Shown: positions 13,606 to 59,902, counted from the stretch's first letter. The stretch: 64,000 nucleotides of DNA from Phoronis australis (GCA_002633005.1 NMRA01000634.1:1-64000), one strand, 5' to 3'. The notes: generated by a model from the sequence alone, not told the origin. Numbers and translations are program-made.

Positions 13606-13622
13606 GCGACTCTAAAGACGCT

Positions 13623-13671
13623 ATGGTTCGAACGTTTGTGTTGATATCGTTTCTTTTCCTACATTGTTACG
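13623..13671 (+). CDS. Exon 1: start codon and signal peptide MVRTFVLISFLFLHCY(G)
   Basis: ATG, basic residue, hydrophobic core, small residues at -3/-1; donor G|gtaggt is phase 1 and matches exon 2. Confidence 0.75.
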
Positions 13672-16600
13672 GTAGGTGAATGGTATGAACCCCTGGAAGA
13701 GGCGTGCGAAAGTTACGGAAATTTGTTTTAGTAAAAAGATGACGTGAAATTATTTAAAGATTCTGATAGTACATGAACGTGGCGTTTATACTGCGCTGAA
13801 ACAGAGGTCTGTAAAACGGAAACTCGTAGGTAATCGTTTGGGACGAGCTTAAAAGGTGTCTAGTCTTGAAGTATCGCTGAATTTTCATTATTTTGATATT
13901 TTGATATTTACCGAATATAAATCTGAAAAAATGTAGGTGTCACCGTATTGGTTTTATGGTAAGAACCGCCGTCGATTTTTATATAACGCTTAATTTTGAT
14001 GCCATACTACGTGTTTGCATTGAAATAGGAAAAATGTTAGGTTCATAGACTCAGTTTCTGAGCAATTTTATTCCAAACATTTTTACACAAGAATATGCAA
14101 TTTAGGCTACGAATACCCCGCTTAATTTTACTGGATGACGATTATCAGATACAGGTGTATCTCATAAAAACGCAGACCGGACAATGCGTGTTCCTTGACA
14201 CCGCGTCGTCAGCGCAGAATGCAAATTAGCTCCATTCAATTGCCCCAGTGAATGCGAGACTGAGCGTTCTCTCTGGCAAGCGATCAGAAATGACGAAACT
14301 AAGACGGGATTGCTGAATTGAAATATTTTATTGTGAAAAGTACAGTTGCGTACTATGTTTTGTTTTATTTCTCGCGTCTGTTATGGGTTCAGAGATAGAC
14401 GTCGTTTCACACTTTACACATTTAATCACTGAATGATACGTTAAGCAATGTATTAATTCTGATGTCAAAATCATTAATTTGAACGAGTTACAACTTAATT
14501 CATGTTCGTTGATGCTAACGTCTTAATTGAACAGTTTCATTATCTTAACAGGCTATTACTTTATAAAGTATTCGAGTAAATCCGTTGACACCAACCCTGG
14601 TGACGAAGAGACACACTGGGCAGTGACAGTGTCACAGTGTGAGCGCCTCTGTGAACAGTGGTCGCTATGCAAGTCATTTACCTACAGTGCTGCAGACGGG
14701 AATTGCACACTATACAAACAAGACAGGAACTACTTTATAGGGGCCGGAGATTATGTCACCCAGACGGGAGTCGACTTTCACGATAGGGGTAATATTGATT
14801 TTAATGTCATGGATTCTCATGAAGTTAATGAAGTGCAAGCTTAATCATTTCCTATAACATGCAACTGTTACAGTCTAACAGTTTATGTTATAAACTATTC
14901 AGGACATCCTTGGTATGGACTTCAGTGCATGATAAATATTAATTGTATGGTTTGGTAACCTGCTTGATAATTTTCAATAGGAAGTGGTGAAAGAAGTGTT
15001 CTTTTAAAGGCATATCGAGCCCTTCGACGGTGGGTGCTTTGGTAGCATGTGTAGCAATTTCGAAACCTTGTTACACTCGGTGACGATGTCGTTTCTTCAG
15101 AGTTTTGTTTTGACACGGGTCATAAAACATCAAGTCAGGAAATAAGGCGTCCTTACGTTATTTACTTTAAACTTTGAAATTTTTGCCTGCCAATGTTGGC
15201 TGAATATGCCTTGAACTAACTGCTGATAGTTGATTTAATATAATGTGTATGGTTTACGAGAGCTGGGAAGCATCGTAAAAATATCGTAAATGGACTGTGT
15301 ATTGAATAGCCATCTTGGTTGCTTTATGAGGGCATACAAGGCAGGTTTACTGGACTGCAGGCAGGAATTCCATCTCTTGCTGGTTTTCAATCGCCTACGC
15401 CTGTTGTCCAAAGTTTTGTTCACCATAAACTACTCCAATTGGCTATGCATTTCAGATACCATCAGGCACGGGTGCTGGGCAACCAGTTCCCAGTTGCATG
15501 AAATAGTCTCAAATAGCGACTCCACTATGTTCCCTAAATCTATTGCGTATTTGTGAATTTTCTATGTAAAACTCAATATTATTGAAAATAAGAAGGAATC
15601 TTTTCATGACACCTTCCTCTACAAAAAGCTGGATACAGCTGTGTTCACATTCCAAGCCTCGAATTCGACTTCCTCAACTGTCAAAGACAAATCATCATGG
15701 CAAGAACAGTGTATTTTGATCTGGTTATTTGAGAGAATAATACAATAAAGAAAAATATGTTCAGATGAGTTATTCGATTCATACTTTCGAAAAGGTCTAA
15801 TTATCTCACACGGAGAATGTTTCAGTGGGTTTTCGTAGTGTTTTCAAATGTGCTTAAGAAGATTGCACTAAGTCTTTCACTTATGGGAGTGTTTACATAA
15901 CGACCAGTTTCGAAGTGCAATGGGAGATTTCATGCTTTAAAATGAGCCAAAAAGATCGCTCCGATGGAGATTAATTAAGCTTCGCCTACGTTTCAGTTAA
16001 AAACTCGTCCTTAAATAAAATGTGGGTTCTGAACTTGGGTTTTGTTACAACAGACTCAGTCCAAACATGTTTCGAATATTCAAATACTTTGATTCTAGAA
16101 TCTACTATGTTATAAGTAGTCAAATTTTGAAAACGGGATTGCATGGCAGTTATGTTAAACAAATTTTTGATACCGTCTATCCAACCATTTCTACTAACAC
16201 AGTACTCCCTTAGAAAAACCTTTTTCAGTAACCTACCATTCCCTTTGGTCACTAATGCACATTCCATTTATTGCCTGATGCTGAGACCTGCAGTCTCGAA
16301 ACGAGCTAGAAGTGGTTTATTTTTTTGTTGTTTGTTATGTTTCCCGGCGTTTTGCCACATAGTTGCACACCTGAACAAAGGAGATTGTTTCGACACTACT
16401 GTACCGAAAAAAGTTTAGTCCGTTAGATGGATGTTACTTGCGTAATTGTCTAATCTTTTTATAGCGGCATTAAACCCTTACTTTCTGTAAAAACAAGTTT
16501 TGATTTGAGCCTCTTACCGTTATAAACTTGGCCTTTCTGTTCCTTACTCAGTTTAGAAGTGATCTCTGAACTGACAGATTATTTCTTCAGTGCAAACTCT

Positions 16601-19600
16601 CCGTCTGACCAGAAATAATAGCCAGTTTTTTCAAAGCCAAGAGATCGCACTTACTTTAACTAAGGAAAAATTTGAGTTTAAATTCATAACATAAAATGGC
16701 CAAAATAAATGTTTTGAACAGAGCACCTCCTACACCTACATCAATGTTCAGTTTACAGTCACTGCCGCTCCAAATTTCGAGATAACTCCCTCGGTAGCCA
16801 TAGTTTTCAACCCTCTCCAATAGCCGTGACTGTTGTCGAACTTCTCCACTAAGCACCCATAGTTTATGTATATCTCTAAACAAGCCAAATTAAATGGATA
16901 ATACGGCACAAACTGTCCCTCATGTGCGTATCTGTAATTGGTTTTTTGAAATCACCGATACGAACTTACTGATCACATACCCTATTTTCTTGATTTTAGT
17001 CACGAGCTGTTACTTCGAAAAAATTGTCGATAGCTCTTTGGGCTTTGTGAACAAAACTACATCTGCAGCGGATTACCTCGTTTGCCAGCAACACTGCCTT
17101 GATGAAACAACGTTTGACTGTAAATCAGTGAACTATTATACCAGCACGTCCACCTGTGAATTGAATCATGAAAATCTTGAAACTGTTACATCAGCCGGTC
17201 AGTGGAACCAGGATACAAGCTCACAGTATTATGACAAGATATGTCCAGATAATCGTAAGCACGATTTATCTTTACTTTTTCTCAAACGACATGCTAAATA
17301 AAGTTTTTGAATTGGTCAAACTCGGTATCTTTCTGTAATAGAAATCGCACAACTGACAGAAATGATTTAAAATCAATTTTGTGTTATGCATTAATAACAT
17401 CTATTGTCTTTAGGCTGAACGATAAGTAAAATTCAAGGGAAATACACGCAACCGTTAGAATTACGACTACGTGTACTTTGTCATTAGATATCTATGTGCC
17501 TGTGACAAAACTACAGAAAATATTGGACGAGCGTCGTGTTACGATAGGTTGTTTGGTCTTTGTTTATTACTGTACTTTCTACCAATGTATTCGGCCTCTT
17601 TAGTGAAGTAAGTGCACGGGTATAGTTCAATGCATGAGCTTGACAATTGTGTTTCACGATTCCTGAAAACATGAAACACCACTTCTCGTTGCATGGTAGC
17701 ATGTCAAAGCGGTTGGTTTACATGGCGCGGGCAGTGTTACAAGTTTGTCGCAGAAACAACTATTGCACAGTCTGGCAACACGTGGCTTAATGCTATCGAC
17801 AAGTGCACGGCGGAGTCCAGCGTTTTAACAAGTATAAACAGTCCACAGGAAATGGATTTCATAGCATCCGTTGCAACGTAAGTTTTTGTTTGTTCGAAGG
17901 AGTAAATATGAATGTAGAGTTCGATAAAAGATCCAGGATGTTTCAGCTCTGCGATCTCAACCAATTAGTCTATGACAAGGTGTTTATTCGCTTTAGACGT
18001 TTCCTGAGTTAAAATCAATTATCACTTTTACTCAGTTCATCAAAATCAATAGAAAGAATCGTTTGCTGACAAAACTACGTTAACTATATGGCTAGGTAAT
18101 CGATTGGGAGTAATACCTTGTCAAACATTTGTCCCCTTTGTTTACTATCAGCCTTTTATTATGTCTTCAGTGGCGTAGGAAGCACTTTTGTACTTTTTGT
18201 TCGGCAAGTGGCCGACGAAGTCGTAAGTGTAAATGAAGAGGACCTGGGAGGTATAATCCCTCCCGTAGAATTTTAAAAAATTAATCTGCAGTCTACAGAT
18301 CGCGAAACTCCTTTTGCCGTACTTTATGGAGAATATTGGTCCGGCCGCCATGCCTACACATGGGCGGCGCAGCACTGAAAAAAGTGGGGAGCTAAAGCCC
18401 CCTCAGCCTCGTGGTGCACCGCCTATAGATCATGTGCGGCGTAGCACTGTAAAAAGTGTGGGGCGATAGCCCCCCCCAAGCCCCCTATGATGCGCCCCCC
18501 CCCATGCAGTACAGGACTAATCCCAGGGGTCATGGTCTGTACAAGGAACTGAAGGAATGGAATGTCAACTCCCGCGCGCAACCCATAAATTTTAGTCTTA
18601 GCGCTTGAGACCCCAGGATTTCACGGTGCTAGCTACGAGAATTTGCAATGTGTATTTCCGGTTGTTCGCTCGACTAATTTGTAATCGAGTGCTGTAGTTA
18701 TCAAATCAAGCCTAATTTCATTGCTTCATTTTCATTTTGTTATTTTTGTTCATTATGAAATCGTCAAGCGAGATTCTTGAAGCACCGTGCCAGACAAACA
18801 TTGATTTCACGACAAAGTTAGGCAACAAACCCGTCTGGCCATTCGTTGTGCCCACTGACCCGTAGCTGTGAGTGGATAACGGGAGTAGTCTGACATCTGA
18901 TATCTTTTTTCAGCTCCAGTCATATAAAGCCCTCTGTATTGCGGTGATAATCGGGATGCTCCTTCACGACTCTTTGGAATATCTTTCAATATTTTGTAAC
19001 TTTACTATAAATGATGTCGGCGACCTCCTTTTGTTGAACTCCTGGTACTACTTAGTACTAGTACTAGTACTCAGTACTACTAATAAGTACTAGTGCATAC
19101 AATGCATGAGGTGATGTACCGGGCTTTATCAATTATCGAAAAACTGTTATGAAGGTAATATTCATGGTTTCATGACTGTGTTAACACTTACGTCGACAGT
19201 CTCATTGGTTAACAAATTTCTGCACTTATTGTTTGCGACAAACCTTTGTTGACATGAAACCTGATAAATCAGCTGACAAGTGCAAGGTTGCTTGCCTAGT
19301 GTGTTTTCAGTGCAAGACTTAACAAAACTGAAACCAAAAAAATTAAATTGCAGGCTGCCTATTGTCACTGAATGTATTTGAACCTAATAGGTATTTTTCA
19401 ATGAAATTTAATGTTATTCTACTCGGAAAACTATTACCAGCTATTCGAATTTCAAATGTTAATTTTAATTTTTCTTATATTATTTCATAACTCAAGTTTC
19501 AATTGCTTTAATTCTGATCAGGACCCACTGAGAGTACAGTATCCTCACAATGAAGAAGTTTCCGTCACGAATTAAAAGTATATCCTACTACTAAGGTTAG

Positions 19601-22600: not shown

Positions 22601-25600
22601 TGGCTCTTTAAAATTTAAAAAGAGCCTACAAATGTGTCACCATTGGGATAAAAGCGTATATCGTCAATTGTTACAGAAAACATTACCCGAACAACGAGTT
22701 TTTTATCGGCCTGTCATACGGTGTCCATGGTAACGAGTGGATTGACGGGTCTGCGACCTTCTACACAAACTTCGACCATGGTGAGTATAATCCTCTTCTG
22801 AACAGCGTGAGACCTTCGCATGACCAAAGACATCGACAGTCTTTGCAAACATTTGATGGTTTGTTGCTGATAAGATATCATTCACACATGTTTCTTATTA
22901 ATTTTTGCGCTTACTGTTTTTGAAATGCCGCAGCGCAGCTTCCCTGGATTCAACCCTCCTTTTTGCGGAGGTGGACAAACGCATTGCATGATTGATTTAG
23001 TTGCCGAAATGTAAGTCTCTTGACAAACATCCTGAGTTCCTGAGCTGCGTTGCACATATGAAGAACGGTTCATCCCACCCCTCGCGGCTTTTCAACTTTT
23101 GTGTCCGCACTGCGAAACAAATTCCAGCTTTTTGGATCTATAATTACTAATAGTGAACCGATTTTGATGTAAAATGTAAAACAGAGGAGTGCCGGCATTT
23201 TGGGTAAGAACTGCAGAATCAAAGAAGGCTTGGCACTATTAGGAAGTGACTAGAAGATCACATCGAAAGGGCGGATCTCAAACTGCTAAAAATCTTGTCT
23301 TAGGAGACAAATCGAGCCGTAAAACCAACCAACGAACTTGGATCCTGGTATACATGTTGTGAAGCTACACATAATAGACTCACCGTATTAGTTTCAAATC
23401 TCTACGACTTTTCCACCCGAATAATACGTATCCAACAAGAAGTTTTTTAATGATGGCAACACTTTATTTCCATCATATCTTTAAAATATCACTCAAGTGC
23501 AATTCCCAAAATGTCCATATTTACAAAACAAGTCGTTTACATATGAATGCTTATACAGCGCATGTTTTGGTGTAGCTTGGACATACAAGTTTTTCGCTTC
23601 AGCTTTGAAAACGAGGTCAACGTTATCAAATTTGGCGCCTTTGGTATAAAACATGAACAAAATGTGAATCTTGCTTCTTCAGATATCGTGCCAACGACAT
23701 TCTCCAATTCGAACTTTTACATTTCTTGTAGTGACCTTGAAAATGATGGCCAAGTTCTCCAAAATCGACTGGCACTTGCAGTTACTCACCTGCGCCTTGG
23801 CACAAAGTACAAATACAATCTAAAGCTTCGGTCTTGAGTAATGCCGTCAACAACATTTTCCCGCGTTGAAATTCGTTTCCTTGGAGAGAAAATGTAAGAA
23901 TCAAACTAGTGATGACACACTAATTCCTTCTGTTTTTTCAGGTCATGGAGTTACCAAGAAAGTTGTTTGTTACCCAAACCAACTGTTACTGAAATGTCCT
24001 ATTGGCAAAGTTCTTCGTATACACAAGGCAAATTATGGACGAACGTCATCTAATGTTCCAAACTGCGAAGTGATTGTAAGTGCATGAAACATAACAAAAG
24101 CGAGTTAAGTTCTACGCTCAAAGGTGTAGTGCACAGGCTGCCAGGGGTAAAACAAAAATTAAAGCATCGTGGGTACAATGGAAATACACGGGAAGCTGGA
24201 TATTTGAGAAGCCGTATCAGCAGCGATATACATCGCTCGCGCGGTTAAGATTTGTGACGATAGGGGGTCGATAAGTGGTGACTAAAGTTCAGTTAAATGA
24301 AACAGTCCCAAATTTGGACTCGACAAAGATTTTTAAATCGACTGCGTATTTGTGACTTTCTTTTTTCACAGATGTATGTTTCTATCATTTTAGGCTTATT
24401 TTCAGCTCCTGTTCGGCTAATGACATTTTCTAATAATGCAACGCAAAACTGAGCCCAGTGAGTTCAGTTATAATAAATAGGTACTTAGTCCTTAAATTTA
24501 GGGCATTGCTTGAAATGATCCCTATTTATTTTCAATAATATTGAAAAGTCAACACAGACTTCACTTCTGATTTGCAACAAAGTCATAGATTGACTTAGTA
24601 ATGAAACTAAAACAGCATAAGAAAGGACAATCGGCGTTTTCACAAGTCACCAAATCCGCAATGGATTTTGGGAACTTAGTTGAGTCTCTATTTAGGACTG
24701 TTTCATACAACCAGGCACAGACAGTTTTGTGGCTACCCGTGTGGTGAAATTGGTGGTGACCAGACGGTGATTGGTAGCAACTGGGTTTGCGGATACTACA
24801 TGACGTGCCTTGGACCTAAAGTAGCCTTGTTTTGACTGGCTTTAGGCTATGCAGAATCCAGAAAAATGCTCAATTTTGGTTAAATTTGGAACTTCATATC
24901 TCAGAAATGGCTTGACGTATTCCCATGAAATTTTATATCGTGTTTTATGCACTTTTCTCCAAAACGGTGTTCAGAATTAATTTTAAAATGTTCCACCTTT
25001 TCAGGAAAGTCTATCAAAAATAGGACTTTTCAGTTTTTTTTGAAAAAATAAAGTTGTCTTAAACGGAAAACGAAATAATATTTCGAAGAACGGTAACTCA
25101 GTACGGCGTTTTTGAGATGTTATCTTGAACATTTACATCATAGGAAATTTGCACGTTATTGACTTCGCTGTTTTACTTCGAATGTACGCCTATTGTTCCA
25201 CGAAATTTTACTTTTTAGAAAATATGTTCTAATATATATATATATATATTATATTCTGTGGTTGTTTACGTATTTGGCTAAATGTGCACTTTTGTCTATA
25301 AGGTCATGCTTAACCTCAATGACATTTTACTTAACCTCAATGATATTTGTGCTGCATTGTTTTCCGGTAGAAACACATGGTCGACTGTATCTCTCCGTCC
25401 AGCTTCACCATTATTCACAACGCTTGTCACAACAAGACTTCGTGCTCAGTTGAACAATCAACCGCAGTGTTTGGCGATCCCTGTGTTGGAGAAAGAAAAT
25501 ACATCGAAGTGGACTACGACTGTGTTGAAGGTATACCTAGATCATGTTCCGAAATCATTTTAAGGCCACATTAAAGACACTCTTTCCTGTTTTTGCAATT

Positions 25601-47890: not shown

Positions 47891-47964
<74 letters not shown>

Positions 47965-50900: not shown

Positions 50901-53091
50901 CTCTGACCTAGAGGTTTTTTTGGACAGATGTGTTTAATTCAGTATACGAATTTTATCATTTATCGCTTACATATACGTCACAAGGTTCGGAAATTTACCA
51001 ACCTTTATGGCTTACTTCTAATATCTTGATTGGTCACAAACCTGCTTACATTCGATCCTTTTATGAAAAAGGCGTAAGATTTGTTTGTGATTTATATAAT
51101 GAGAATAGACAACTTTTATCTTTGAACATGTCAATCTCAATATGGGGTGGGAAATATGTTGCAAACATTTAAGTAGTGTCTACACGCCTCACCACGTGAT
51201 CTAATGAATATAAGTCCGAAAAAATTTCTACCTCGGAAGGGGTTACATCTCTTATTTTACACTCAATTCTCCACAAAATTCAACTTCAGGATTTCTTTCT
51301 TAACCTTTTTACAGCTTACGGCAAGGTGTTATACAGTTACTTAAATGCAATGAGATGAATAATTTTGAACAAAACTCCCACTATTCCCAATGGTGCTACA
51401 AAGTATGACACGTGATAAGAAGGGAATTCGAACTTTTTACGAGAATTTTTTGAAATTTTATATAAAAGCCCAAAATTTTGATCAAGATGGGAAGCTGATT
51501 TTGTAATTGAAAAGTCCGAATCTGAGTGGCGATATATTTTACGTAGCGCTTTTGACTTTATCCCTGTCAATGACATACGCTTAAAGTGGATGCAGATGAG
51601 AATTGTCCACAGAATAATAGGAACAAACAAACTGTTGTTACAAATAGGAGCTAGTGATTCCGGTCTATGTAGCTTCTGTCATGCGAGGTCAGAGTAAATT
51701 GCTCTTTGTTTTTTGACATATCTTTCGCGAAATCTTCTGACAAAAATATCGGTTTCGTGTGTGCGTGTGTGTGAAACTTATGAATGTGCATCAGTCAACT
51801 CTAGATGTACTGGTTACCGGTGATACATGTCTGTAAGGACTTGTTTATGATATGTGATCAAGTACTTGGTTATCTAACAAAGTTGGAGTGAAAAAAAAAG
51901 AAATTAATAGGTTTCCGTGATGTATATACGTTACCATAATCAGAAAGTTTGGTGAATTTTTTCCTAGGAAACAAAATCAGACAAAAGTCATCTCCAACAA
52001 ATCTCTGTTGACAACAATGAAGTCCTGCCGTGTCCTTACTGGCCAGTCTCAATCTGAAAGCGCGCGCGTGTGTGTGCGTGTGTGCGTAATTTTGTTTCCG
52101 ATGCATTGTCATAGGTATGTGGTCTCAAATGCGACAGCGTCGCGCTAAACGTGGGCTAAATACCGGGAAAGCAGTTGTCCTGTAATAACTACATGTATAC
52201 AAGAAATGTCCTCTTACAGCTTGTAAACCCGGCACCTACTCGCCCACGGGTTACCATGGCAGCATTCGCTGTTCACCTTGCTCAGCTGGGACCTTTTCTT
52301 CCAACACCGGAAGTACGGAGTGCCAAAAGTGTCCCGCAGGTAGGTTGGACAATACTCTTCCATTTAGATTATTTACAGTTTAATGTTGTACCGTTAAGAC
52401 ATTTGTAGTTGTTCGGCATAAAGCAAAGCGTTACATAAAATGTATCTTAAACCAAGTCTGCGCTCGTTGGAACGGTACTGCTCTCAAACAAAGCCCAGAA
52501 ATAATAGCTTAAAGTAACCGAACGTAGTATGGGCTTTCCATGCCTCTTTAAGAAGATAGTGTTCATGATAATTTTGTTCCTTGTCAGGTTATTACTCGGC
52601 TCAAGGTCAGGCACAGTGTACGCCTTGCGACCACGGCTCCATTAGCAACATCTCTCGCATTACATGTGAACCGTGTCCGTCTGGCTACACGTCTCTTCTG
52701 GGAGAGTGTGCAGGTAATGGCAAATATCCAACGTGCAGCTCTTTAACGGGACATTATCGGCTTTACGGTCGGGATTATTGTTAGGAGTTGTTAGCTTTGG
52801 CCAGAGCTATAAAATTGCAAATACGATGCTAGCAGTTGTCTGCCAGACAGGCCGAAAGCAAGGCCGGTGACTTCGCTAACTAAATATTCTTACAATACTC
52901 CGTCATTTATCGAGTGGGGTTTAGTTGCGTCAGCAGAGATTTTGACTGCTACTATAGGGTTTTGAAGATTCGATCAGGTTTATCAGAAAATCACCAGGTG
53001 TTGAGAGCACAAACGCCACTTCTGCTTCACTCAAATTCTAATTCAGGTGTGTTGACGATGGCGAGGCGCAATTTCTTTCATTCGTACACGC

Positions 53092-53125
<34 letters not shown>

Positions 53126-56100
53126 CAGGAGCTTGCTGCATGCTGATGATTCAGCTCTGGTACGCCTATGGTTAAACATGGACTTTTAAAAGGATAGAGA
53201 AAAGACTAACGACGTAGTTCTAACAATTATTTATTTATTTGCTTATAGTACTTACACAGTAGATGGAAATGGAAACCTTAAGTGAGATATTATGAAATGT
53301 ATCTCATTGAATGTATATGATGTATTAATTTCACCATTCGTCGTTTTAATTGCTTACTCGCTTTTGTATAGAACACTTTCAAAATTACCGCATAAGACCA
53401 GATGTTGTTTCTGCTGAGGTGTCGTACTTGCTACCAGAAACCACGACGTCGTCGGCTGAGGCATGTCGTCAATACTGCGAGCACAGTGTCACGTGTGTAG
53501 GTTTCACATATAACACCGCAACTGGAGCATGTTCTCCGAAGAAATACATTGGAACAGACACCAAACCGCTCACAAATGGGACAAGTCTGTACGACACAGC
53601 AGGTAAGATCTTCTGCCACCTAGTGACCGTCTTACTAGTGATGAAAACTTATGATGTCAAGATATTGTACCGTTTGCATTAGTGTAAATCTATGGGCGAA
53701 GGTTTTTCACCCTTACGCTGTTTCAAGTATCCCCACTAAAAACAGTGGAACAAAACACTCTAGATTCTAAAAATGGATTGAAATGTACTTAGACACCTGC
53801 TCGATTTTTGGAAGGGGTGAAACTGAATTTTTCGTCAAGTTTAAATTTTGCGTTTACAAGTAGTAACTCTGTTTCTAGAAACACTACCAACATGAAAATG
53901 GTTCCAATGATCAACAAATCTTATCTTTGATTCAGAAACGAAGTAAATGCAATTCGTAGCCTTACACGTAGTGCAAATCTAAAAGAGCTCAGCCAGTCAA
54001 GCAATTACCGGTTTCCGCTGAAATTGAAGGGGGTAAATACTTAAACCTGAAAATATTACCAAAGCATTCACAAAAATTGCTTGAAGTTCAATTAAATTCT
54101 AACCAAAGCGAATTTTAAGATTATCGCCAATGCAGTCGGTTGCTCCAAAGGACAACTTGAAGCAAAAATTCACAAAATTGCCTGTTTTCACTCAAAAAAA
54201 CCTTCTTAAGCTCGAGATTGAAGTAATCGAATAGATATTGCACTCTGACTACCAAACCGCCCGAAGTTCTAAGATTTGTTGAATAGTAGGAATCCACTAT
54301 GTCGACCATTGCTGTGCAACTATTTTTCAATACGATTTTGTTCTGCAAACTTCGCTGAGGCGGCACTGATTCAGCCACCCGAAGAATCCAAACGATTATA
54401 TCGTGCACCGCTTCAAACGTGTCTGTTTTAAGAAAAACGACGTTTTGGTCGAGGCTACATTTGTTCTGCTATTTTCGCTTTCGCGCCTGATCTCTGTTTT
54501 GTTGTGAATTGACGTATTTATCTCCCATGTCACGCTCTGCGATGGGATATGAAGTCATTCATTGGCGGATATTGTAATATGATGCAAACATTTTTTTCAT
54601 TTTTGTGACACCGGTGTTCAGAAACTTATTCCTGGTGTAATCGAATTTGTAATCCCATACGACGGTTCTAAGATGTCGTAAGGCGGAGCATCTACTATTT
54701 TCGACCAAAAATGTTGGCATTACCACAAAAGTTGGCATGCCTGCATTTTTGTTTGGATCTGTGTAACTCTGCTTTTTCAAGCAGTTGACAAGATTTGCTT
54801 TGTGATGTTTATGGCTAAATCGCAATCAAGGTCCATATTCGAGAGTTGACTGTGTTACGGTCTAATAATTTTTTTTGGTAACTTACCAAACTCCGACTGA
54901 ATCTCATATGCAAAGAGTTCTTTAGTTGTGCAAATTAAAAAATCAATCATCAAAATCGGACAATGTTTGAGAAATTTATGTATGTTTTTGTCTATGAATT
55001 TCATGCATTGTTAGCGTTACGAGTGGCCATTTTAAAAATTACAATTTTCAATTGTCAACAGTAGAAAAGAAATTTATTTTATCAAGTAAGCAATTGCTTA
55101 GATATGACTGGGAATAACTTAGATGAAGTTGTGCTTAATCATTGAGAAATGGTAAGGTTCATCATAAACCAGGCACTCGTTACGGAAATTGTGAATTCTG
55201 TGTTTCTAACCCTCACCTACTGTAAAGAAGGTTAAAAACTAAAGTTCAAACTCTGTCATAAAAAGAACTGCCTAGGTAACACAGCAAATTGTTCAACATC
55301 TAAATAAACCAAAAGTTTGGATATTGACTGGGCTCTGCTATGTTGAAAATTCGCCAAAAAGGCTAACGAAAAGGCTACGTACCCCCATGTGCAATTCAGT
55401 AACACAAATGGTTATTGCCAATGAAATTATTGCCTTTTAAATAACAATATATCATCAAAGAAAAATAAATGGCCATACAACATTATGTTACCATGTGATG
55501 CAAAAACAGTGATGTAGTGTACGTACGTACCCCCTCCCCCATGTAGTTTACGTACCCCCATGTTTACAAATTCCATGAAATTAAAATATCACTTGGTAAG
55601 TGAGCAACACTGGTCGTAGACAGTTTTCTTCCTCAAAAATGTTACGTTAAAAGGGGGTTTATTACAATTACATTTGTTTTGAGTGAAATATTAGCATTTG
55701 CGTAGTGTACGTACCCCTATATTTTATTTTGTGCCTATTTTCAAAGTACAGCAGATATGCACATGAATGCTGTGTTTTTTATGTTTTCTCTTTGAATTGA
55801 TTTAGTAAATCAACTAATTCTCAGTAGATTCTTAGTATTTAGTTACAAACCTGACATGTCATTGAAATGTAGTGTACGTAACCCTATGCAGTGTACTTAC
55901 TCCGATGTGAACAAATGCCGTGAAACAAAAATATTACTCGGTAAGTAAGCAACATTTGTCACAGACAGTTTCCTCCATTAAAAATGCTAGGTTAAAAGGG
56001 TGTTAATTACATATACATTTGTTTTGAGTGAAATATTAGCATTTGTGTAGTGTACGTACTCCTATATTTTAACATGTGCCTGTCAAAGAATGATAGACAG

Positions 56101-59100
56101 ATATGCACATGTATGCTGTACTTTTTATTTGTTCTCTTTGAATAGATTTGGTAAATGAACTAACTCTCAGTAGATTCTAAGTAATTTTTATAAACCTGAC
56201 AAATCATTGAAATGTAGTATACGTACCCCTGTGTAGTGTACGTACCTTCAACCTCTATGCTATAAAGTATTGCCCACAAGTATGTTTACATACTGCTGTT
56301 CTCATGAAGAATACTGATATTTCCAAAATGAATCCAGTCTGACAAAAAACAATGGACATTATCAAATTTTGGGCAATGAAATGCCACACAGGACTTGGCT
56401 AGTACTTAACATCTTAGAAGACACATCGTGTGATAATTGATGTTGCAGAGGCAGGTTCTCTATCTCTCAAGCCAACTTGCAACAAACCATCAAGTAAAGG
56501 CAGCTCAAAACTCGAGACCATCCCATACATTTGTAACTTATTCAAAATTTGATGTTGATTGACTGTGTGTAGTGTCCCCCCACCCCACCCCCAACCAGTG
56601 CCATTTTTACTGTTTACAAGTGGAACTCTGAGGCTAGCATTGCTTTAACTATTTTAACCAACTGGTGAATGTATTGAAAACTAAGCAAATAGCACCAATA
56701 AAGCTCTTGAAAAAAGTAATTACTGGTCATTTTCTTTTTGTAAGAACCATATTGCAGGAGAGGAAGTTCTCATTATACTGTGTTAAGATATGTAATGTAT
56801 CATAATGTAGAACAACTTGATCAGCACGGTAATAACTTTTCTTAATTTAGTATGTGATATTTCTTCAATTTGATCAAGAACTTGTTAAATTAAGAGCTAC
56901 CTTATGAATTTTTGAATGGTAGAAGTTGGATGTGACCACAAGTTGTAGTGTACGTACCCTTTTGTACAACTGTGATGCATAAGGCCATAAAGTTTTATTC
57001 GGTGGTTCTTGTGCAAAAATATTTTACATTACAAACCTGGAATGATGGTACTTTAAAATAACCCAGCTTTTACAGTTATATGACAACCTTCATTTTTCAC
57101 CAAAAGTGGCCACCGAATATGGACCTTGATTGTGATTTGCCCGTTTGTATTCATTCATTATGTATGTTAAAATAACGTACATTCTGTATAGTTATGAACT
57201 GTCAACATAGTCTCAACTATTTAGATCAAAGTGGTCCAAAAATAAAAGCTACATAAGTTTTGCTGTCTTCAATGCGCACAACATCTACTTATATACGCAC
57301 ACACACGCGCACGCGCACACGCACACGCACGCACACACACACACACACACACACACAAGTTAGTGCTAGTTGACTATTGATTCTTTCCTGTAATTGGCTA
57401 AAAGACAGCACAGTTACTTCCGTTATGCGGCGACGTTGCTCGGTTCACACATGTCTGAAGACGTCGTAAGGCGGTGGGGCAACTACAATTTTTGTGTCTG
57501 TAAGGGGGTTGTCGTTGGGTACCTTATAATTACTTTTAATTTCAACCGATCGGCCTTCAGGTGTGTTGTATTTTGTTTTTGATGAATTTGATTTATTTAA
57601 GCTTAGCCGTGATGTATAGTTGCCCGTGTAACAATCCACTCTTCTTCATTGAAGCTGCGTTGCCATGGAATTGCGGGTGGGTAGTTTCTTCTTACGTGGC
57701 TGAACCGAACCTCACCTCCGCCGTTGGGCCGTTGCCTCTCGCTAACTGTAGTCAGCATTGTATCGACATCACTTGCGCTGGATTCTTTATATCCCCTGAT
57801 GGTTACTGTGTGTTCATGTCTTCTACACCATCTGACCTTGGAAACTTCGATTACTATGCCTCAGTTCATGGATCCACGTTAGGCTGGGACTACTTTTCTC
57901 GGATATGCAGTCAGCGAAAACGTAAGTGATGAATACTCGCATGTTGACCTTAGGTTAAGTTTATGTAGAATCTTATCAACAAGCCCGTTAGTCGAATATC
58001 AAGCCAAAGTGGATTTTGACTCAGTAAAAATAAACATTTTCTATATGCAGAAAGTCAGTAGAATTTGACTTTTAACGTTTGACCATTAGTTGAGTCATGT
58101 CTTTTATTAAAGTTTATCAAAAAGGTACCTAGATAGCATATACAAATTTCGTTCAAGATGAAATCTCTTACTCTTTTCCGATTAATCATTTCGTGTTCGT
58201 TTGATGCAAGTTTGGAGTTTTTTCATGAAAGCCATAAAATATTATATCTGAAAATTTAGTATGAACCGCTTCAGCCATTTCTGAAGTAAGAAGTTGGGAA
58301 TTTAAGCAAATTTAAAATTTTTCTAGGATCCTACATAAAGTTAACCTCTAGAAAGGATTAGGAAATCGCACTGACAATGTCACCTGTAAATGTGTAATTA
58401 TCCTACCTAAGCTTAAGATGGCACAGACAAAAGTTCAAAATTGATATTTTTAGTTTTTATTCACTTCAAATAGAATAATCCATGACACTGAGCCGTTAAA
58501 TATGACGTAACAGATGTCTGATAAAGGTTAATCTGCTTTTGCTGATTGTAAGCTGGCCCAGTGAAAAATCATGTAACCTTCTCATGCCATGAAATAATAA
58601 CGAATTCCATTCCCAAACAAAGATTTTGGAACACCGGTAAGTGAGATGACTAAAAAAACCTGTTAGATTTATACGGACGGCTAACTCTTTTAAAAACCCG
58701 GCTGCATCTTTATTAGTGTCTCAAATCGTTGGTTGCCGTAACCTGTAGGTATCGTGGCTGAGTTCTATAGACGTCAGTGTCTCGCGAATGAAACTACTGC
58801 ATGTGCACACCCAGCCTAAAAAATAGGGGGGCTCGAATTTTAGTAATGTGGACCCTTTGCTAAAAAAAACAAAAAAGTAAAAAACTGGGTACGTCCAGAG
58901 GTATGAATTCTATATTCACCGAATTCCTGCCTTTCCTGGTTATCTGGGCTATCTGGGTGCAGAGTCGACGTCATAACATGTTGGGCACACCCATATATGC
59001 TCAGTCCTCCACCTCAGAAGCTCATGCAGAACACCTTGACTAATTGTTCCAGTAAGGTGCTGATTATGGATTTCCCGCCACATTCCTCTTATTGCAGACT

Positions 59101-59902
59101 TTGATGCGGTTCCCTTGTCTACACTGAACTGTCGCAATCTTTCAACTTTTTCCCCAGTTTCCTCCCCCCTCTTCTCATCCAGAGCAGTAAGCACCTCTGC
59201 CTCACCCGTCTCCAAGGGTCCACCCATATTGCCCATGTTGCGAGCATAGCCAACTTAGAGCAGCACTGGCGGCATCTTCGTCCATGAACATACTAGATTT
59301 CCTCTAATGTTGTACTTTTTCGGACTTTTTGTTTACTTTTTGTTTCACTGAACAGGACCTTTTTGCCCATTTCGTTAAATGGGGGGCTCGTTCGTGCATC
59401 GCCTGGATGCGCGCATTTTCAGTAATTACTTCCTTTGCTTCCAGTGCATGGAGATATCTCGCTAAGACTTGGCAGATACTATCGTTTCGCGAGTGCATGG
59501 AACAGGCACCAGATTTAATATCTGTTAATCTACTTCGTGCTTTTCGTTCTTGGGCTGTAACAGGAAACAAGGTGTTCCTTCAACTGACAAGCATGATAAA
59601 ATACGTAAAAATAATGGTGATGTTAACTGCTCCTCTATCTTCCTCTATGTTGATTTTTAGGGCGAACTAGGAGCATGTCTTTACAAACTGGTAAAACCAT
59701 CATTGGTCACAGCGTATCCAGTTTCACAGTGTTACGAGCTCTAAACTGTATCGAAAAATGTATGGAAGATACAGAGTGCAAGTCAGTTAGCTTCACAAAG
59801 GGAACGACACCCAACTGCGTCTTGAACGACGTCTCTGCTCACACCTTAAAGTCCGTTTTGCAGGAGGAAGCTGGAACAGTTATCTACAGCGTGGTTCCTT
59901 AA
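13623..59902 (+). CDS. Multi-exon gene (24 coding exons, about 1286 aa): secreted mosaic protein with 9 PAN domains, CTLD, SUEL lectin, 3 resistin-like domains and Cys-rich repeats
   Basis: Manual model join(13623-13671,14552-14788,17000-17254,17700-17877,22677-22780,23942-24075,25371-25530,25770-25865,32292-32363,33451-33678,37406-37552,38208-38326,39886-40024,41365-41616,42919-42990,43367-43513,47098-47202,49420-49665,50235-50369,52220-52339,52588-52713,53372-53602,57655-57921,59661-59902) = 3861 nt. All introns are GT-AG with compatible phases and no internal stop. Further exons in gaps cannot be excluded. Confidence 0.85.
14552..14788 (+). CDS. Exon 2: PAN/apple domain 1
   Basis: CERLCEQWSLCKSFTYSAADGNCTL (C-x3-C-x5-C-x-S-F-x-Y...C-x-L); ttaacag| and G|gtaata; phase 1-1. 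Confidence 0.9.
17000..17254 (+). CDS. Exon 3: PAN/apple domain 2
   Basis: CQQHCLDETTFDCKSVNYYTSTSTCELN...YYDKIC; ttttag| and C|gtaagc; phase 1-1. Confidence 0.92.
17700..17877 (+). CDS. Exon 4: C-type lectin domain, N-terminal part
   Basis: CQSGWFTWRGQCYKF...TWLNAIDKCTAESSVLTSINSPQEMDFI, a long-form CTLD start; donor AC|gtaagt is phase 2. Confidence 0.92.
18359..18506. repeat. Two tandem copies of a ~70-bp GC-rich mini element (related copy at about 38613-38685)
   Basis: catgggcggcgcagcactgaaaaaagtgggg...gcccc..gcc is repeated at 18359 and 18431, with similar sequence at 38613. Confidence 0.5.
19833..22558. mobile_element. About 2.7-kb non-autonomous DNA transposon with ~170-bp inverted termini built from AAATGTAACA motifs (intron 4)
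   Basis: 19833-20005 is the imperfect reverse complement of 22411-22558 (e.g. cgtcgaatgcacattcgagaaatgtgccattgttacattt versus aaatgtaacaatggtacatatctcgcatttgcattcgac); no ORF inside. Confidence 0.7.
22677..22780 (+). CDS. Exon 5: C-type lectin domain, middle part (not in the ORF track)
   Basis: KHYPNNEFFIGLSYGVHGNEWIDGSATFYTNFDH carries a WIGL-like FFIGL and the W.DGS...YTN motif. ttacag| and G|gtgagt give phase 2-1, bridging exons 4 and 6. Confidence 0.92.
23942..24075 (+). CDS. Exon 6: SUEL/rhamnose-binding (Gal_Lectin) domain, N-half
   Basis: VVCYPNQLLLKCPIGKVLRIHKANYGRT..PNC with the ANYGR motif; ttttcag| and |gtaagt; phase 1-0. Confidence 0.92.
24291..24712. mobile_element. About 420-bp MITE-like element
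   Basis: Inverted termini tgaaacagtcccaaatttggactcgac and gttgagtctctatttaggactgtttca. Confidence 0.55.
25371..25530 (+). CDS. Exon 7: SUEL lectin domain, C-half
   Basis: DCISPSSFTIIHNACHNKTSCSV...VFGDPCVGERKYIEVDYDC with the DPC and KY motifs; phase 0-1. Confidence 0.92.
25770..25865 (+). CDS. Exon 8: C-type lectin domain, C-terminal part
   Basis: EVNTCAVLDPSAGFAWKGVSCNKSNVGFVCKK (C...W.x..C.....F.C); tttcag| and G|gtgagg; phase 1-1. Confidence 0.92.
27328..27477. other. Assembly gap between the duplicated segments
   Basis: 150 N. Confidence 0.99.
28504..28663 (+). CDS. Exon 7 duplicate or allele (SUEL C-half)
   Basis: Same 160-nt exon with 5 synonymous and 1 nonsynonymous (S>T) differences; AG and GT retained. 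Confidence 0.8.
28865..28960 (+). CDS. Exon 8 duplicate or allele (CTLD C-terminus, WKD variant)
   Basis: EVSTCAVLDPSAGFAWKDVSCNKSNVGFVCKK; 2 synonymous and 2 nonsynonymous differences; splice sites intact. Confidence 0.8.
29296..30472 (+). mobile_element. 1177-bp non-autonomous DNA transposon, ISL2EU-like (AT target-site duplication, AG...CT termini)
   Basis: Absent from copy 1 (empty site tgtca-AT-ttttgat near 26201). The filled site has AT on both sides. Imperfect TIRs (ttgcgagttt/aaactcgcaa) and subterminal actgtgacgtcac.ggaa..ggggcaaaa inverted repeats; internal MSKKHCCYGK*TSDSHY at 29457 resembles a THAP N-terminus. Confidence 0.85.
32292..32363 (+). CDS. Exon 9: resistin-like domain 1, N-half
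   Basis: ARQTYSPLDCTSVSGNSQSATCPA (C-x11-C; compare resistin LECQSVTSRGDLATCPR); ttttccag| and G|gtaaga; 72 nt, phase 1-1. Confidence 0.88.
33451..33678 (+). CDS. Exon 10: resistin-like domain 1 C-half plus domain 2 N-half
   Basis: DFPQGVACRCSCANGRWKHYRRICDCSLCSSNAVSVARCCKPH...VECIENRHTPRIAAPSATCPA; tttcag| and A|gtacgt; phase 1-1. Confidence 0.88.
35192..36630 (+). repeat. Older diverged duplicate of the exon 10 3' end and intron 10 start (33621-34520), interrupted by unrelated sequence
   Basis: 35192-35231 resembles 33621-33667; 35235-35620 resembles 33731-34160; 36360-36630 resembles 34290-34520. Confidence 0.75.
36649..36982. other. Assembly gap flanked by (GA)n and a purine-rich tract
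   Basis: N run with GA repeats on both sides. Confidence 0.98.
37102..37178 (+). repeat. TACAA/TACGA-type pentanucleotide low-complexity repeat
   Basis: gtacaatacaatacaatgcagtacgatataatacaatgcagtacgat... Confidence 0.8.
37406..37552 (+). CDS. Exon 11: resistin-like domain 2, C-half
   Basis: NFPTATDCSCGYCNADFEITNENTCNCSSATTDWATAQCCRI, close to the resistin/RELM pattern TGCxCG..CGSWDI....TCHCQC...DW..ARCC; tttgcag| and G|gttggt. Confidence 0.9.
38208..38326 (+). CDS. Exon 12: PAN domain 3, N-half
   Basis: GDQLIEKYLTIDGIVIDGHDNWTPSGVTSEDECLQACENQ; phase 1-0, CAG|gtgact. Confidence 0.85.
39886..40024 (+). CDS. Exon 13: PAN domain 3, C-half (not in the ORF track)
   Basis: VGCNSVEFKSSDSTCRLSG...GYTYYERLDGE; attag| phase 0 and G|gtgagg phase 1; completes the PAN cysteine pattern. 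Confidence 0.85.
41365..41616 (+). CDS. Exon 14: PAN domain 4
   Basis: CMTICLEDSSCKSTDFDSSTKTCYL; tttacag| and G|gtaaga. Confidence 0.92.
42919..42990 (+). CDS. Exon 15: resistin-like domain 3, N-half
   Basis: DPFFTCDTVKSSEADANQFSCGAI; 72 nt like exon 9; tttcag| and G|gtatat; phase 1-1. Confidence 0.75.
43367..43513 (+). CDS. Exon 16: PAN domain 5, N-part
   Basis: HFTYVQTAILSGYNDE...ACLKQCHNSASCKTIDYY; tttcag| and G|gtaaaa. Confidence 0.88.
43905..44766 (+). mobile_element. L1/Tx1-like LINE 3' fragment (zf-RVT region, 3' UTR, A-rich tail)
   Basis: DVKLKEFHFRL*NGIISCKSFLHKIIVKDSDTCSFCEEESE; ends in aataaacattaaaaaa. Confidence 0.7.
44900..46300 (-). mobile_element. Heavily decayed Gypsy-type LTR retrotransposon pol remnant (RT end/RNase H)
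   Basis: ORF 45499-45969: SSFHGVNEYQNCSPDGAECVKPVRKM resembles the generic RSFLG.VNYY.KFIPN.AE..KPLR.L pattern; MLVVDTAVIGA and KLLQICFHTERFGHHI resemble L.TDAS..GIGA and ELLAI.FA.ERF.Y. Boundaries are approximate and no LTRs were identified. Confidence 0.5.
47098..47202 (+). CDS. Exon 17: PAN domain 5, C-part
   Basis: AKTFICHISYSDRFAVSAYLADSAYFEHFIFDSYR supplies the fourth PAN Cys; ttttccag| and G|gtaagt. Confidence 0.85.
47893..47982 (+). repeat. (CA)n microsatellite
   Basis: About 45 CA units, imperfect at the 3' end. Confidence 0.98.
49420..49665 (+). CDS. Exon 18: PAN domain 6
   Basis: TAEECMQLCFDNPTCKSIDHDPVSGTCHLS...YDYYE; catcag| and G|gtaagg. Confidence 0.92.
50235..50369 (+). CDS. 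Exon 19: resistin-like domain 3, C-half (not in the ORF track)
   Basis: AYPTDCSCSGCASYDYLNDVTGCRCHASDNWGMVLCCHAKSLRRP, paralogous to exon 11 (TDCSC..C...CxC...W....CC); ttacag| and C|gtaagt. Confidence 0.88.
50915..51700 (+). mobile_element. L1/Tx1-like LINE ORF2 C-terminal fragment
   Basis: FWTDVF...QPLWLTSNILIG...EKGVRFVCDLY and DIRLKWMQMRIVHRIIGTNKLLLQIGASDSGLCSFCH (zf-RVT pattern). Confidence 0.75.
52220..52339 (+). CDS. Exon 20: GCC2/GCC3 (ephrin-receptor-like) Cys-rich repeat
   Basis: PCKPGTYSPTGYHGSIRCSPCSAGTFSSNTGSTECQKCPA; ttacag| and G|gtaggt. Confidence 0.92.
52588..52713 (+). CDS. Exon 21: GCC2/GCC3-type Cys-rich repeat, continued
   Basis: GYYSAQGQAQCTPCDHGSISNISRITCEPCPSGYTSLLGECA; tgtcag| and G|gtaatg. 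Confidence 0.9.
53086..53124 (+). repeat. (CA)n microsatellite
   Basis: Visible CA run. Confidence 0.9.
53372..53602 (+). CDS. Exon 22: PAN domain 7
   Basis: SAEACRQYCEHSVTCVGFTYNTATGACSPK; gtatag| and G|gtaaga. Confidence 0.9.
54813..57141. mobile_element. About 2.3-kb non-autonomous TIR element with an internal ~345-bp tandem duplication
   Basis: aaatcgcaatcaaggtccatattcg (54817-54841) versus cgaatatggaccttgattgtgattt (57114-57138) match 24/25 as inverted repeats; gagtgaaatattagcatttg at 55681 and 56026. Confidence 0.7.
57296..57357 (+). repeat. (CA)n/(CGCA)n microsatellite
   Basis: Visible repeat. Confidence 0.9.
57655..57921 (+). CDS. Exon 23: PAN domain 8
   Basis: WNCGW...LANCSQHCIDITCAGFFISPDGYCVFM...WDYFSRIC; donor C|gtaagt. 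The exon start could alternatively be 57607 (also phase 1, in frame). Confidence 0.85.
59661..59902 (+). CDS. Exon 24 (terminal): PAN domain 9 and stop codon
   Basis: tttttag|; RRTRSMSLQTGKTIIGH...NCIEKCMEDTECKSVSFTKGTTPNCVLN...VVP then TAA. Confidence 0.9.

Follow-up and report, generated by a model that had tools for sequence, protein, structure and literature searches.

A 24-exon gene with a SUEL domain encoded inside a CTLD, likely encoding one secreted protein with nine PAN domains and three resistin-like heads

Gene model and module order

The locus at 13623-59902 of the window (the whole stretch of DNA that was analysed, 64,000 nucleotides) raises the question of whether PAN, CTLD, SUEL and resistin-like modules belong to one secreted protein, how they are arranged and what such a protein might do. 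We rebuilt the gene as 24 exons on the + strand, all with GT-AG ends, running from an ATG at 13623 to a stop codon that ends at 59902. The spliced ORF (3,861 nt; 1,286 aa plus stop; 93 Cys) encodes a signal peptide, nine PAN domains, a CTLD, a SUEL domain, three resistin-like heads and two Cys-rich repeats, distributed as follows:

Exon 1, 13623..13671, +: ATG and signal peptide (aa 1-16)
Exon 2, 14552..14788, +: PAN1; Pfam PAN_1 38.1 bits
Exon 3, 17000..17254, +: PAN2, 6 Cys; Pfam PAN_1 42 bits
Exon 4, 17700..17877, +: CTLD first part, to helix 2; Lectin_C 17.4 bits; PDB CTLD matches to E 2.5e-8
Exon 5, 22677..22780, +: CTLD middle, FIGL and WIDG; ends where EPN/QPD is expected next
Exon 6, 23942..24075, +: SUEL first half (ANYGR), nested in the CTLD
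Exon 7, 25371..25530, +: SUEL second half (DPC), nested in the CTLD; Pfam SUEL_Lectin 49.2 bits
Exon 8, 25770..25865, +: CTLD last part; WKG replaces WND
Exon 9, 32292..32363, +: resistin-like head 1, first half
Exon 10, 33451..33678, +: head 1 second half, linker and head 2 first half
Exon 11, 37406..37552, +: head 2 second half; Pfam Resistin match
Exon 12, 38208..38326, +: PAN3 first half
Exon 13, 39886..40024, +: PAN3 second half
Exon 14, 41365..41616, +: PAN4; Pfam PAN_1 38.7 bits
Exon 15, 42919..42990, +: likely head 3 first half; 72 nt, C-x14-C; the least certain exon
Exon 16, 43367..43513, +: PAN5 first part, likely nested in head 3; Pfam PAN_1 25.5 bits
Exon 17, 47098..47202, +: PAN5 last part
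Exon 18, 49420..49665, +: PAN6, likely nested in head 3; Pfam PAN_1 53.7 bits; RNA reads
Exon 19, 50235..50369, +: head 3 second half; 0 reads in three RNA runs
Exon 20, 52220..52339, +: Cys-rich repeat (Ephrin_rec_like/TNFR-like); RNA reads
Exon 21, 52588..52713, +: Cys-rich repeat; RNA reads
Exon 22, 53372..53602, +: PAN7; Pfam PAN_1 33.9 bits
Exon 23, 57655..57921, +: PAN8, 6 Cys; missed by Pfam
Exon 24, 59661..59902, +: PAN9 and stop

An in-frame ATG at 13584, upstream of the start codon of exon 1, has a poorer context. The rebuilt exons bear out the sequence-only reading of one ORF of 24 phase-compatible exons from signal peptide to stop, and all of the modules listed in that reading are present, although they do not form a simple string, two domains appearing to be interrupted. 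This nesting, which the earlier reading did not contain, is the main oddity of the gene.

The GC content is 47.3% in the coding sequence and 38.5% in the introns, and 14 of the 23 donors lie in the top 2% of GT sites. Since 20 of the 23 introns are in phase 1, compatible phases are weak evidence for a single transcript; the probability of an open frame was dropped as a test of the gene model, the exons having been picked by hand. In a scan of 494 candidates for signal-peptide exons, the sole passes were exon 1 and a weak candidate within PAN5; hence, no domain boundary showed a second gene start. Other ORFs in the flanks and introns (n = 50) gave no Pfam match.

The strongest hydrophobic 19-residue window is the N-terminal leader (KD 1.34), and only two others, within PAN8 and PAN9, are strongly hydrophobic (~1.1-1.2). 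As had been proposed, the 19-residue KD scan of the 1,286-aa ORF found no window of TM strength past the leader and no GPI-like tail, and the ORF and domain matches support the description of the product as a secreted mosaic of binding modules. The full chain (~140 kDa) is acidic (pI 5.55), with 10 N-glycosylation sequons, dibasic sites at aa 449, 912 and 1205, and an RKRR furin-type site created at the exon 23/24 joint. Cys counts are even in all PAN, SUEL, CTLD and Cys-rich blocks, and both Cys-rich exons (20 and 21) pass as Ephrin_rec_like in Pfam.

Seven of the nine PAN domains exceed the Pfam curated cut-off from one exon, and the C-x3-C core is present in all nine. The two exons of PAN3 score 17.6 and 15.5 bits in Pfam; when joined, they reach 44.6 bits against a profile of the other eight PAN domains, a score matched by none of 500 shuffles. 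PAN8 has no Pfam match and scores 11.3 bits with the gene's own PAN profile (0/500 shuffles); a model of it, built on an alignment of the other PAN exons of the same gene, aligns over 69 residues with its best structural match, the PAN domain of plasminogen (Z 7.8, rmsd 2.5 A). The domains thus have the PAN/apple features (C-x3-C core, 4 or 6 Cys, PAN fold), with a pairwise identity within the gene of 10-29%. In the PDB, the PAN profile and the PAN8 model match best to multi-PAN/apple proteins, namely factor XI, plasminogen/HGF N-domain and the apicomplexan adhesins Toxoplasma MIC4, Eimeria MIC5 and Sarcocystis SML-2. Unlike these, the protein described here has no protease domain, and its PAN domains are interspersed with lectin-like and resistin-like modules. 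A metagenome scan with exon 14 gave 259 pattern matches, none confirmed.

A SUEL domain encoded inside a CTLD

The CTLD pieces in exons 4, 5 and 8 match PDB CTLDs in order and flank the SUEL exons. The latter are a block of phase 1-1 located in the long loop of the CTLD, at the expected EPN/QPD position. From WIDG to the next CTLD Cys there are 116 aa with this insert and 18 aa without it. The separate PDB searches gave weak matches for exon 5 (a single one, mannose receptor CRD residues 71-98, E 9.1) and exon 8 (CTLD proteins in five of six, best E 0.013), and the assembled core has the 6 Cys, FIGL and WIDG of a CTLD. The sugar motifs of Ca2+-dependent C-type lectins are EPN/QPD and an Asn-Asp (WND) pair, according to part of PMC2792708; a motif check of the CTLD exons found neither. 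The GEYN that follows exon 5 was rejected as a relic EPN, being read-through of the GTGAGT donor.

The SUEL domain has 8 Cys and the ANYGR (YGR) and DPC motifs, as do the rhamnose-binding lectins CSL3 and SUL-I and the latrophilin lectin domain; in contrast to these, it is a single copy nested within a CTLD. The rhamnose contacts of CSL3, as given in an excerpt of PMC3269628, are Glu7, Tyr27, Asn74, Asp79, Gly83 and Lys86. Alignments show that four of the six are retained (the equivalents of Tyr27, Asp79, Gly83 and Lys86); because Tyr replaces Glu7 and Thr replaces Asn74 (CSL3 numbering), sugar binding is not assured. A recognition role, as first proposed, is therefore plausible for some putative ligand, but its glycan part is weakened, the CTLD lacking EPN/QPD and WND and having its loop filled by the SUEL, and the SUEL itself being minus two contacts.

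A CTLD and a SUEL occur in one extracellular region of proteins such as sea-urchin REJ3, PKD1L2 and nematode LAT-2, where they lie in tandem in membrane receptors. Compared with these proteins, the SUEL here lies inside the CTLD, without a membrane segment, and the Pfam searches of 23 exons gave no REJ or GAIN/GPS match. A homologue search with exon 7 returned no candidates, the search being short and word-based and so weak evidence of absence.

Exons 7 and 8 are also found in a second copy:

Duplicate stretch, 27478..31607, +: repeats 24396-27327 after a 150-N gap
Exon 7 copy, 28504-28663, +, and exon 8 copy, 28865-28960, +: within the duplicate stretch

This is most likely an assembly artefact representing the other allele. 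A true tandem duplication was rejected on the contig-end geometry and a phase clash (the end of exon 8 is in phase 1, whereas the copy of exon 7 begins in phase 0).

Three resistin-like heads, the third likely split

Exon 11 matches Pfam Resistin (PF06954) at 33.5 bits, against a cut-off of 25, while the half-heads in exons 10 and 19 score 12.2 and 13.9 bits, under the cut-off. With a vertebrate resistin profile, all three heads outscore 1000 of 1000 shuffles. A motif scan found exactly three resistin second halves, and at the level of sequence their presence is certain. Head 1 has the ten Cys per head of the resistin/RELM family; heads 2 and 3 have 9 each. The net charge is +4 for head 1, within the range of eight vertebrate heads (-1 to +5), and -4 each for heads 2 and 3.

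As for the first halves, 825 mini-exon candidates were scored against those of vertebrate heads; exon 9 ranks second, and we infer that exon 15 supplies the first half of head 3. Exon 15 is equal in length to exon 9, and its acceptor is in the top 0.4%. The C-x10-16-C motif is present in 14 of the 825 candidates, and among these 14 a strong splice score is found only for exons 9 (19.9) and 15 (12.7), the next being 4.5. Joining exon 15 to exon 19 gives the vertebrate C2-x8-C3 spacing and adds ~4 bits. Because the other blocks have even Cys counts, the two Cys of exon 15 and the terminal CC of exon 19 are left to pair; in the PCSK9 modules, the last strand carries Cys 5 and 6, the partners of Cys 2 and 1, respectively (PMC9238481, in part). 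Against this, the resemblance of exon 15 to a resistin first half is modest (rank 42/825 alone; with exon 19 added, 11th and 6th of 337), the donor of exon 15 is a weak one (top 27%), and adding exon 15 lowers the score from 9.0 bits for the half alone to 6.4 bits for the joined head when null2 correction is left at its default. The stretch 49869-49940 was rejected as the first half, having a weak acceptor and lower ranks (120/825; 163-183/337). Head 3 is thus likely split by PAN5 and PAN6, an insert of 166 residues; heads 2 and 3 lie ~170 aa apart.

RNA reads were examined over 13500-27300 and 49300-53050, with ~18-19% of each raw run. They are sparse, on several exons and nearly all in one direction, so that some exons are transcribed at a low level. 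On exons 18, 20 and 21, the first mate is always on the minus strand (depth 1-2), and the flanking non-repeat intron bins have no reads. Over 13500-27300, intronic repeats dominate the reads, and no exon-exon joint was among the 15 of 38 splice joints listed; none was listed for 49300-53050. Since no splice joint was seen, we infer one transcript, and one protein, as the likely product of the locus. The nesting could instead be confined to the genome, with alternative splicing giving an intact CTLD (exons 6-7 skipped), an intact head 3 (exons 16-18 skipped) or no head 3 (exons 15 and 19 skipped), or with more than one transcript made from the locus. Every block concerned is phase 1-1, and so all such skips preserve the frame; they would bring the CTLD spacing back to a normal 18 aa and that of head 3 to x8, and exon 19 has no reads between neighbours that have them, at read numbers too low to weigh. 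However, a SUEL transcript would still include exons 4-5 upstream and exon 8 downstream of the SUEL, barring their being skipped too, the bins containing exons 7 and 8 have reads in both X1 and X2, and no second signal-peptide exon lies at a domain boundary. We regard a nesting confined to the genome as quite improbable.

A profile of the three half-heads matched only 1RH7, 1RFX and 1RGX in the PDB (E ~5e-5), in keeping with the Cys-rich head motif of vertebrate resistin and RELM-beta. Those heads stand on coiled-coil trimer stalks, as described in portions of PMC13647132 and PMC8253364; here, in contrast, three heads lie in one 1,286-aa chain without such a stalk, directly adjoining the CTLD, PAN domains and short linkers, and two are acidic with 9 Cys, the third likely interrupted. 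Resistin heads on collagen stalks make up 6 of the 20 matches listed in the profile search; these secreted, collectin-like proteins of hagfish, lamprey and frog (P0014, P0016, P0017, P0019, P0020 and P0021) likewise use the head as a module, but have one head and fewer than 240 aa, without PAN, CTLD or SUEL. The closest arrangement is that of PCSK9, a secreted chain without a stalk whose C-terminal Cys/His-rich domain holds three resistin-like modules (PMC9238481, PMC10772138, in part), M1-M3, packed about a pseudo three-fold axis (PMC9238481, in part). The PCSK9 modules are contiguous, with 6 Cys each, and follow a subtilase domain; the heads here have 9-10 Cys and resistin-like rather than PCSK9-like sequence, with PAN3-4 between heads 2 and 3. 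No PCSK9 model or family match appeared in any scan, including exon 10 against the PDB (0 at E 10). The single-sequence fold of exon 10 has a pLDDT of 46.8 and was set aside.

Searches run for homologues and papers agree with the earlier remark that no described family is known to have this combination, within CC-licensed PMC and bioRxiv and weak sequence searches. By title and start of abstract, no paper on the architecture was found there. The short word-based searches, weak evidence of absence, found no full-length homologue, and for exon 10 gave 15 candidates, none scored. In the profile search of 152-2000-aa proteins, the best 20 of 76 candidates were all vertebrate where named, and none of these 20 had a PAN, CTLD or SUEL. 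The ESM Atlas gave nothing usable for exon 10 and, with P0001 as query, only chordate resistin clusters. Against 1.84 billion representatives, the half-head profile had one match, a reedfish resistin.

Possible functions

Function is here predicted from sequence, with immune, mucosal, matrix and fertilisation roles all among the candidates. The explanation that we tentatively favour, at a little under even confidence, is that the 24-exon gene, with its SUEL encoded in the CTLD, likely produces one secreted 140-kDa multivalent protein of the agglutinin type, binding and cross-linking its targets, likely with three resistin-like heads at its core, one of them probably interrupted by a pair of PAN domains. 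Symmetric phase-1 exon blocks would have inserted into pre-existing phase-1 introns, the SUEL into the CTLD long loop and PAN5-6 into head 3, at an intron position that also splits heads 1 and 2. The CTLD would then be a non-lectin scaffold presenting the SUEL where its own sugar loop was. As the chain has neither a coiled-coil nor a collagen stalk, its three heads may pack together within it as a pseudo-trimer, by analogy with the PCSK9 modules, with PAN3-4 and PAN5-6 looped out as arms and one spare Cys each in heads 2 and 3. With high avidity, the nine divergent PAN domains and the SUEL could attach to microbes, particles, mucus or cell coats through the glycans or proteins that these display, and the bound targets would be clumped or tethered, without killing being required.

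The modules might instead cross-link self glycoproteins in a structural or adhesive matrix (mucus, tube, egg coat, sperm-egg contact or larval attachment), the spare Cys of heads 2 and 3 forming inter-chain disulfides. PAN arrays occur in cuticle and adhesive proteins, and CTLD and SUEL occur together in sperm REJ proteins; the degenerate sugar sites of both lectin-like domains and the N-glycosylation sequons also fit. Near-zero expression in the three RNA runs, of unspecified tissue and challenge status, would suit a narrow tissue or stage, but no ZP, collagen, VWD, mucin-like or REJ block is among the Pfam matches of 23 exons. We consider a matrix role somewhat unlikely.

The sequence-only reading coupled glycan-recognition modules to the resistin-like heads in a recognise-and-act immune or mucosal effector. 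As a killing mechanism, lectin and PAN arms would concentrate the heads on microbial membranes, to be permeabilised in the manner of RELM-beta. On its own, the C-terminal head of murine RELM-beta binds anionic lipid and makes liposomes permeable, and a preparation of the folded monomer was active, according to part of PMC13647132; head 1 has all 10 Cys and a charge in the vertebrate range, and processing is possible at the dibasic sites. The heads credited with membrane attack are cationic, however (PMC8253364, PMC13647132, in part), and cationicity is held important in sections of PMC8253364, whereas heads 2 and 3 are not; a complex with six to eight subunits in the membrane (PMC13647132, in part) would be hard to form from heads buried in an acidic 140-kDa chain. 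Because of the loss of CTLD motifs, the four of six SUEL contacts and two heads that are acidic and one Cys short, killing of this type, the acting half of the original proposal, finds little support, and we hold it to be improbable.

A bolder reading, which we think unlikely, is that a single-chain resistin pseudo-trimer evolved here independently of PCSK9, as the second of its kind: the three heads would form one hub, one head folding around the 166-residue two-PAN insert and the SUEL replacing the Ca-dependent sugar loop of the CTLD, and the hub would signal or attack membranes after the arms capture a target.

To our knowledge, work on resistin-type heads has dealt almost exclusively with hormones of vertebrates and antimicrobials of the gut, and no three-in-a-chain version is known besides PCSK9. 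A stalkless three-head form in a likely invertebrate would bear on the ancestral function of the head. Lineage-specific mosaics of PAN and lectin domains are common in animals, which tempers the significance. Interrupted domains of this kind are under-called by exon- or HMM-based annotation, Pfam giving nothing for exons 5, 8, 9 and 15. The gene would hold two cases of exon blocks landing in other domains, in one of which a lectin's own sugar loop was exchanged for another lectin module.

Gene model and transcription

The gene is real, and its architecture is unusual and partly nested. The protein belongs to a known class, the secreted animal proteins for recognition and adhesion that are built by exon shuffling, and what would take it beyond ordinary domain shuffling is the nesting together with three stalkless resistin-like heads. 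Gene structure and domain content point to an animal source, likely an invertebrate.

13623-59902, forward strand: gene of 24 exons, predicted to encode a secreted protein

An exon model assembled by hand from the sequence of the region, and then checked by script, reproduced both the 24 exons and the end coordinates proposed by the sequence-only reading. The exons encode 1,286 residues plus a stop in a single frame, with AG acceptors and GT donors throughout, and the GC content is 47.3% in the coding sequence versus 38.5% in the introns. Fourteen of the 23 donors fell within the top 2% of GT sites in a leave-one-out test, the weak ones being those of exons 2, 15, 10 and 7. The protein starts with a hydrophobic leader, downstream of which no segment of membrane strength was found. 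The first AATAAA/ATTAAA 3′ of the stop lies at 61535, which suggests either that the 3′-UTR is about 1.6 kb long (59903-61535) or that a variant signal is used.

Since 20 of the 23 introns are in phase 1, the continuous frame is in itself little proof of a single gene. Split domains tie together exons 4-8, 9-11, 12-13 and 16-17, and also exons 15-19 if the nesting in the third resistin-like head, described below, is right. When 494 ATG-to-GT phase-1 candidates were scanned, exon 1 passed with two ATGs, and the only other candidate to pass, a weaker one, lies inside PAN5. Coverage was sparse in the three raw RNA runs with the same species label. Read depth was about 2 on exon 18 in two runs (X1 and X2) and, in X1, 2.1 on exon 20 and 1.1 on exon 21; in all of these reads the first mate was on the minus strand, and the neighbouring non-repeat intron bins had a depth of zero. 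The bins with exons 2, 4, 7 and 8 had depths of 0.2-1.4, mostly in the same direction, those with exons 1 and 3 had zero reads in these sparse runs, and no exon-exon joint was seen in RNA among the joints listed. Transcription of the locus is thus supported, and a single transcript across the exons is likely.

Domain content and probable nesting

A Pfam scan of 23 single exons, each as a separate query, gave seven PAN domains above the cut-off, SUEL (a rhamnose-binding-lectin-type module), a partial Lectin_C and two Ephrin_rec_like repeats; Resistin was above the cut-off in exon 11 and had an E of 0.08 in exon 19. When scored with a profile built from the remaining eight PANs, PAN3, which spans two exons, reached 44.6 bits and PAN8 11.3 bits (0/500 shuffles in both cases), which confirms both as PAN domains. 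PAN8 had no Pfam match in the single-exon scan; its model (pLDDT 64.7), made with an alignment of the other PAN exons of the same gene, gave nothing below E 0.001 in Foldseek, with PAN/WSC folds as the top rows and plasminogen as the best structural match (Z 7.8, rmsd 2.5 A, 69 residues). A six-frame motif scan found exactly three resistin second halves within the window. Each of heads 1, 2 and 3 scored above 1000/1000 shuffles with a profile derived from 19 vertebrate heads, and a profile built from the three half-heads had no PDB matches other than resistin and RELM-beta.

The C-type lectin-like domain (CTLD) is spread over exons 4, 5 and 8, which align, respectively, with the start of known CTLDs, with the WIGL-WxDG stretch (a single weak match) and with the final third (5/6 matches). 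Exons 6-7 form a phase 1-1 block between exons 5 and 8 and carry a complete eight-cysteine SUEL; WIDG and the following CTLD cysteine are 116 residues apart with the SUEL and 18 without it. Hence, the SUEL is very probably nested inside the CTLD; the exon order 4-5-6-7-8 is direct in the genome, and the inclusion of exons 6-7 in the mRNA is putative. EPN/QPD and WND are criteria for a calcium-dependent C-type lectin in a passage of PMC2792708, and as the SUEL occupies the position expected for EPN/QPD and WKG stands in place of WND, the CTLD is predicted not to be such a lectin by these criteria. The YGR and DPC motifs are present in the SUEL, but by alignment it retains only four of the six primary contacts described for CSL3 (PMC3269628, in part).

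Heads 1 and 2 (exons 9-11) are each interrupted by a phase-1 intron directly past the second cysteine, and exon 19 starts at this same position of the head, with no first half adjacent to it. Exon 15 lies 7 kb upstream of exon 19, beyond three other exons; it has the length of exon 9 (72 nt), a C-x14-C motif and an acceptor in the top 0.4%. A motif of this type (C-x10-16-C) is carried by 14 of the 825 open phase 1-1 candidates, with strong splice scores only in exons 9 and 15, and joining exon 15 to exon 19 restores the C2-x8-C3 spacing. Because the cysteine count is even in every other block of the protein, the CC at the end of exon 19 requires two further cysteines to pair with; in the homologous modules of PCSK9, the first two cysteines are bonded to the last strand (PMC9238481, in part). 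Exon 15 bears a modest sequence resemblance to the first halves of vertebrate heads (rank 42/825), and joined to exon 19 it ranks 11 and 6 of 337. The joined head scored lower than the exon 19 half alone under the default correction, and the weak donor of exon 15 and the zero RNA reads on exon 19 count against a split head. On balance, we lean towards a nesting of PAN5-6 (exons 16-18) inside head 3, with exon 15 as its first half. Another 72-nt open candidate just upstream of exon 19 (49869-49940, C-x12-C) has a strong donor, but was rejected with a weak acceptor and poor resistin likeness.

Proposed mode of action and relatives

In known resistin proteins, a coiled coil trimerises the heads (passages of PMC13647132 and PMC8253364), and collagen-borne heads made up 6/20 matches (hagfish, lamprey and frog). 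Unlike these proteins, the three-head protein has no coiled coil and no collagen stalk; like PCSK9, in which a trio of resistin-like modules is packed around a pseudo three-fold axis (PMC9238481 and PMC10772138, in part), it probably carries three such heads in one stalkless chain. By this analogy, the three heads might, tentatively, pack into a central hub, from which PAN pairs would loop outward, with PAN1-2 and the CTLD-SUEL as the N-terminal arm and a Cys-rich rod and PAN7-9 as the C-terminal arm. Such a multi-armed molecule could bind with avidity, whereby targets would be clumped or tethered. The sequence-only reading had proposed a recognise-and-act effector; as membrane attack is credited to cationic, hydrophobic heads (passages of PMC13647132 and PMC8253364), whereas two of the three heads here are acidic, a killing role is less likely. 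An RKRR furin-type site is formed over the exon 23/24 joint (57916-57921 and 59661-59666), before PAN9, and cleavage there could release PAN9.

Comparison systems for the architecture are REJ, PKD1L2, LAT-2 and the PAN-ZP proteins. Sequence searches with single exons or short profiles, in which blanks are weak evidence, found no full-length relative, and literature searches directed at the architecture brought up no pertinent paper, judged by titles and the opening lines of abstracts; unannotated database entries with the same layout may exist. The homologue searches returned proteins of hagfish, lamprey and a frog that combine collagen with resistin, as well as resistin-like proteins of reedfish and sturgeon (P0014, P0016, P0017, P0019, P0020, P0021, P0001 and P0002), although the abstract of PMC4467842 reports no resistin-type proteins in Agnatha or Actinopterygii.

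Duplicated stretch and repeats

The stretch 24396-27327 is repeated at 27478-31607, 92-97% alike in pieces. The last base of the left contig corresponds to 31607 and the first base of the right contig to about 24397, a geometry that most likely reflects two alleles joined one after the other during scaffolding. Relative to the originals, the exon 7 copy has 6 nt differences and the exon 8 copy 4, and these copies cannot follow exon 8 in frame. Three fragments (1925-2188, about 44020-44200 and about 50900-51700), which by eye we take to resemble LINE 3′ ends, had no Pfam match. Other repeats are as follows.

29296-30472: insertion of about 1.18 kb in the second copy only, with 29-bp inverted arms near its ends (90% alike); it looks like a polymorphic MITE-type element
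11750-11931 and 12236-12416: inverted repeat with 180-bp arms (89% alike) on either side of a 31-bp tandem repeat, about 1.2 kb before the start codon
55537-56246: 345-bp unit in intron 22, 2.1 copies, 82% alike
51064-51315: stretch that attracts repeat RNA reads
18350-18480 and 25947-26868: intronic repeats that draw many reads from both strands in the RNA runs (depth 40-65)
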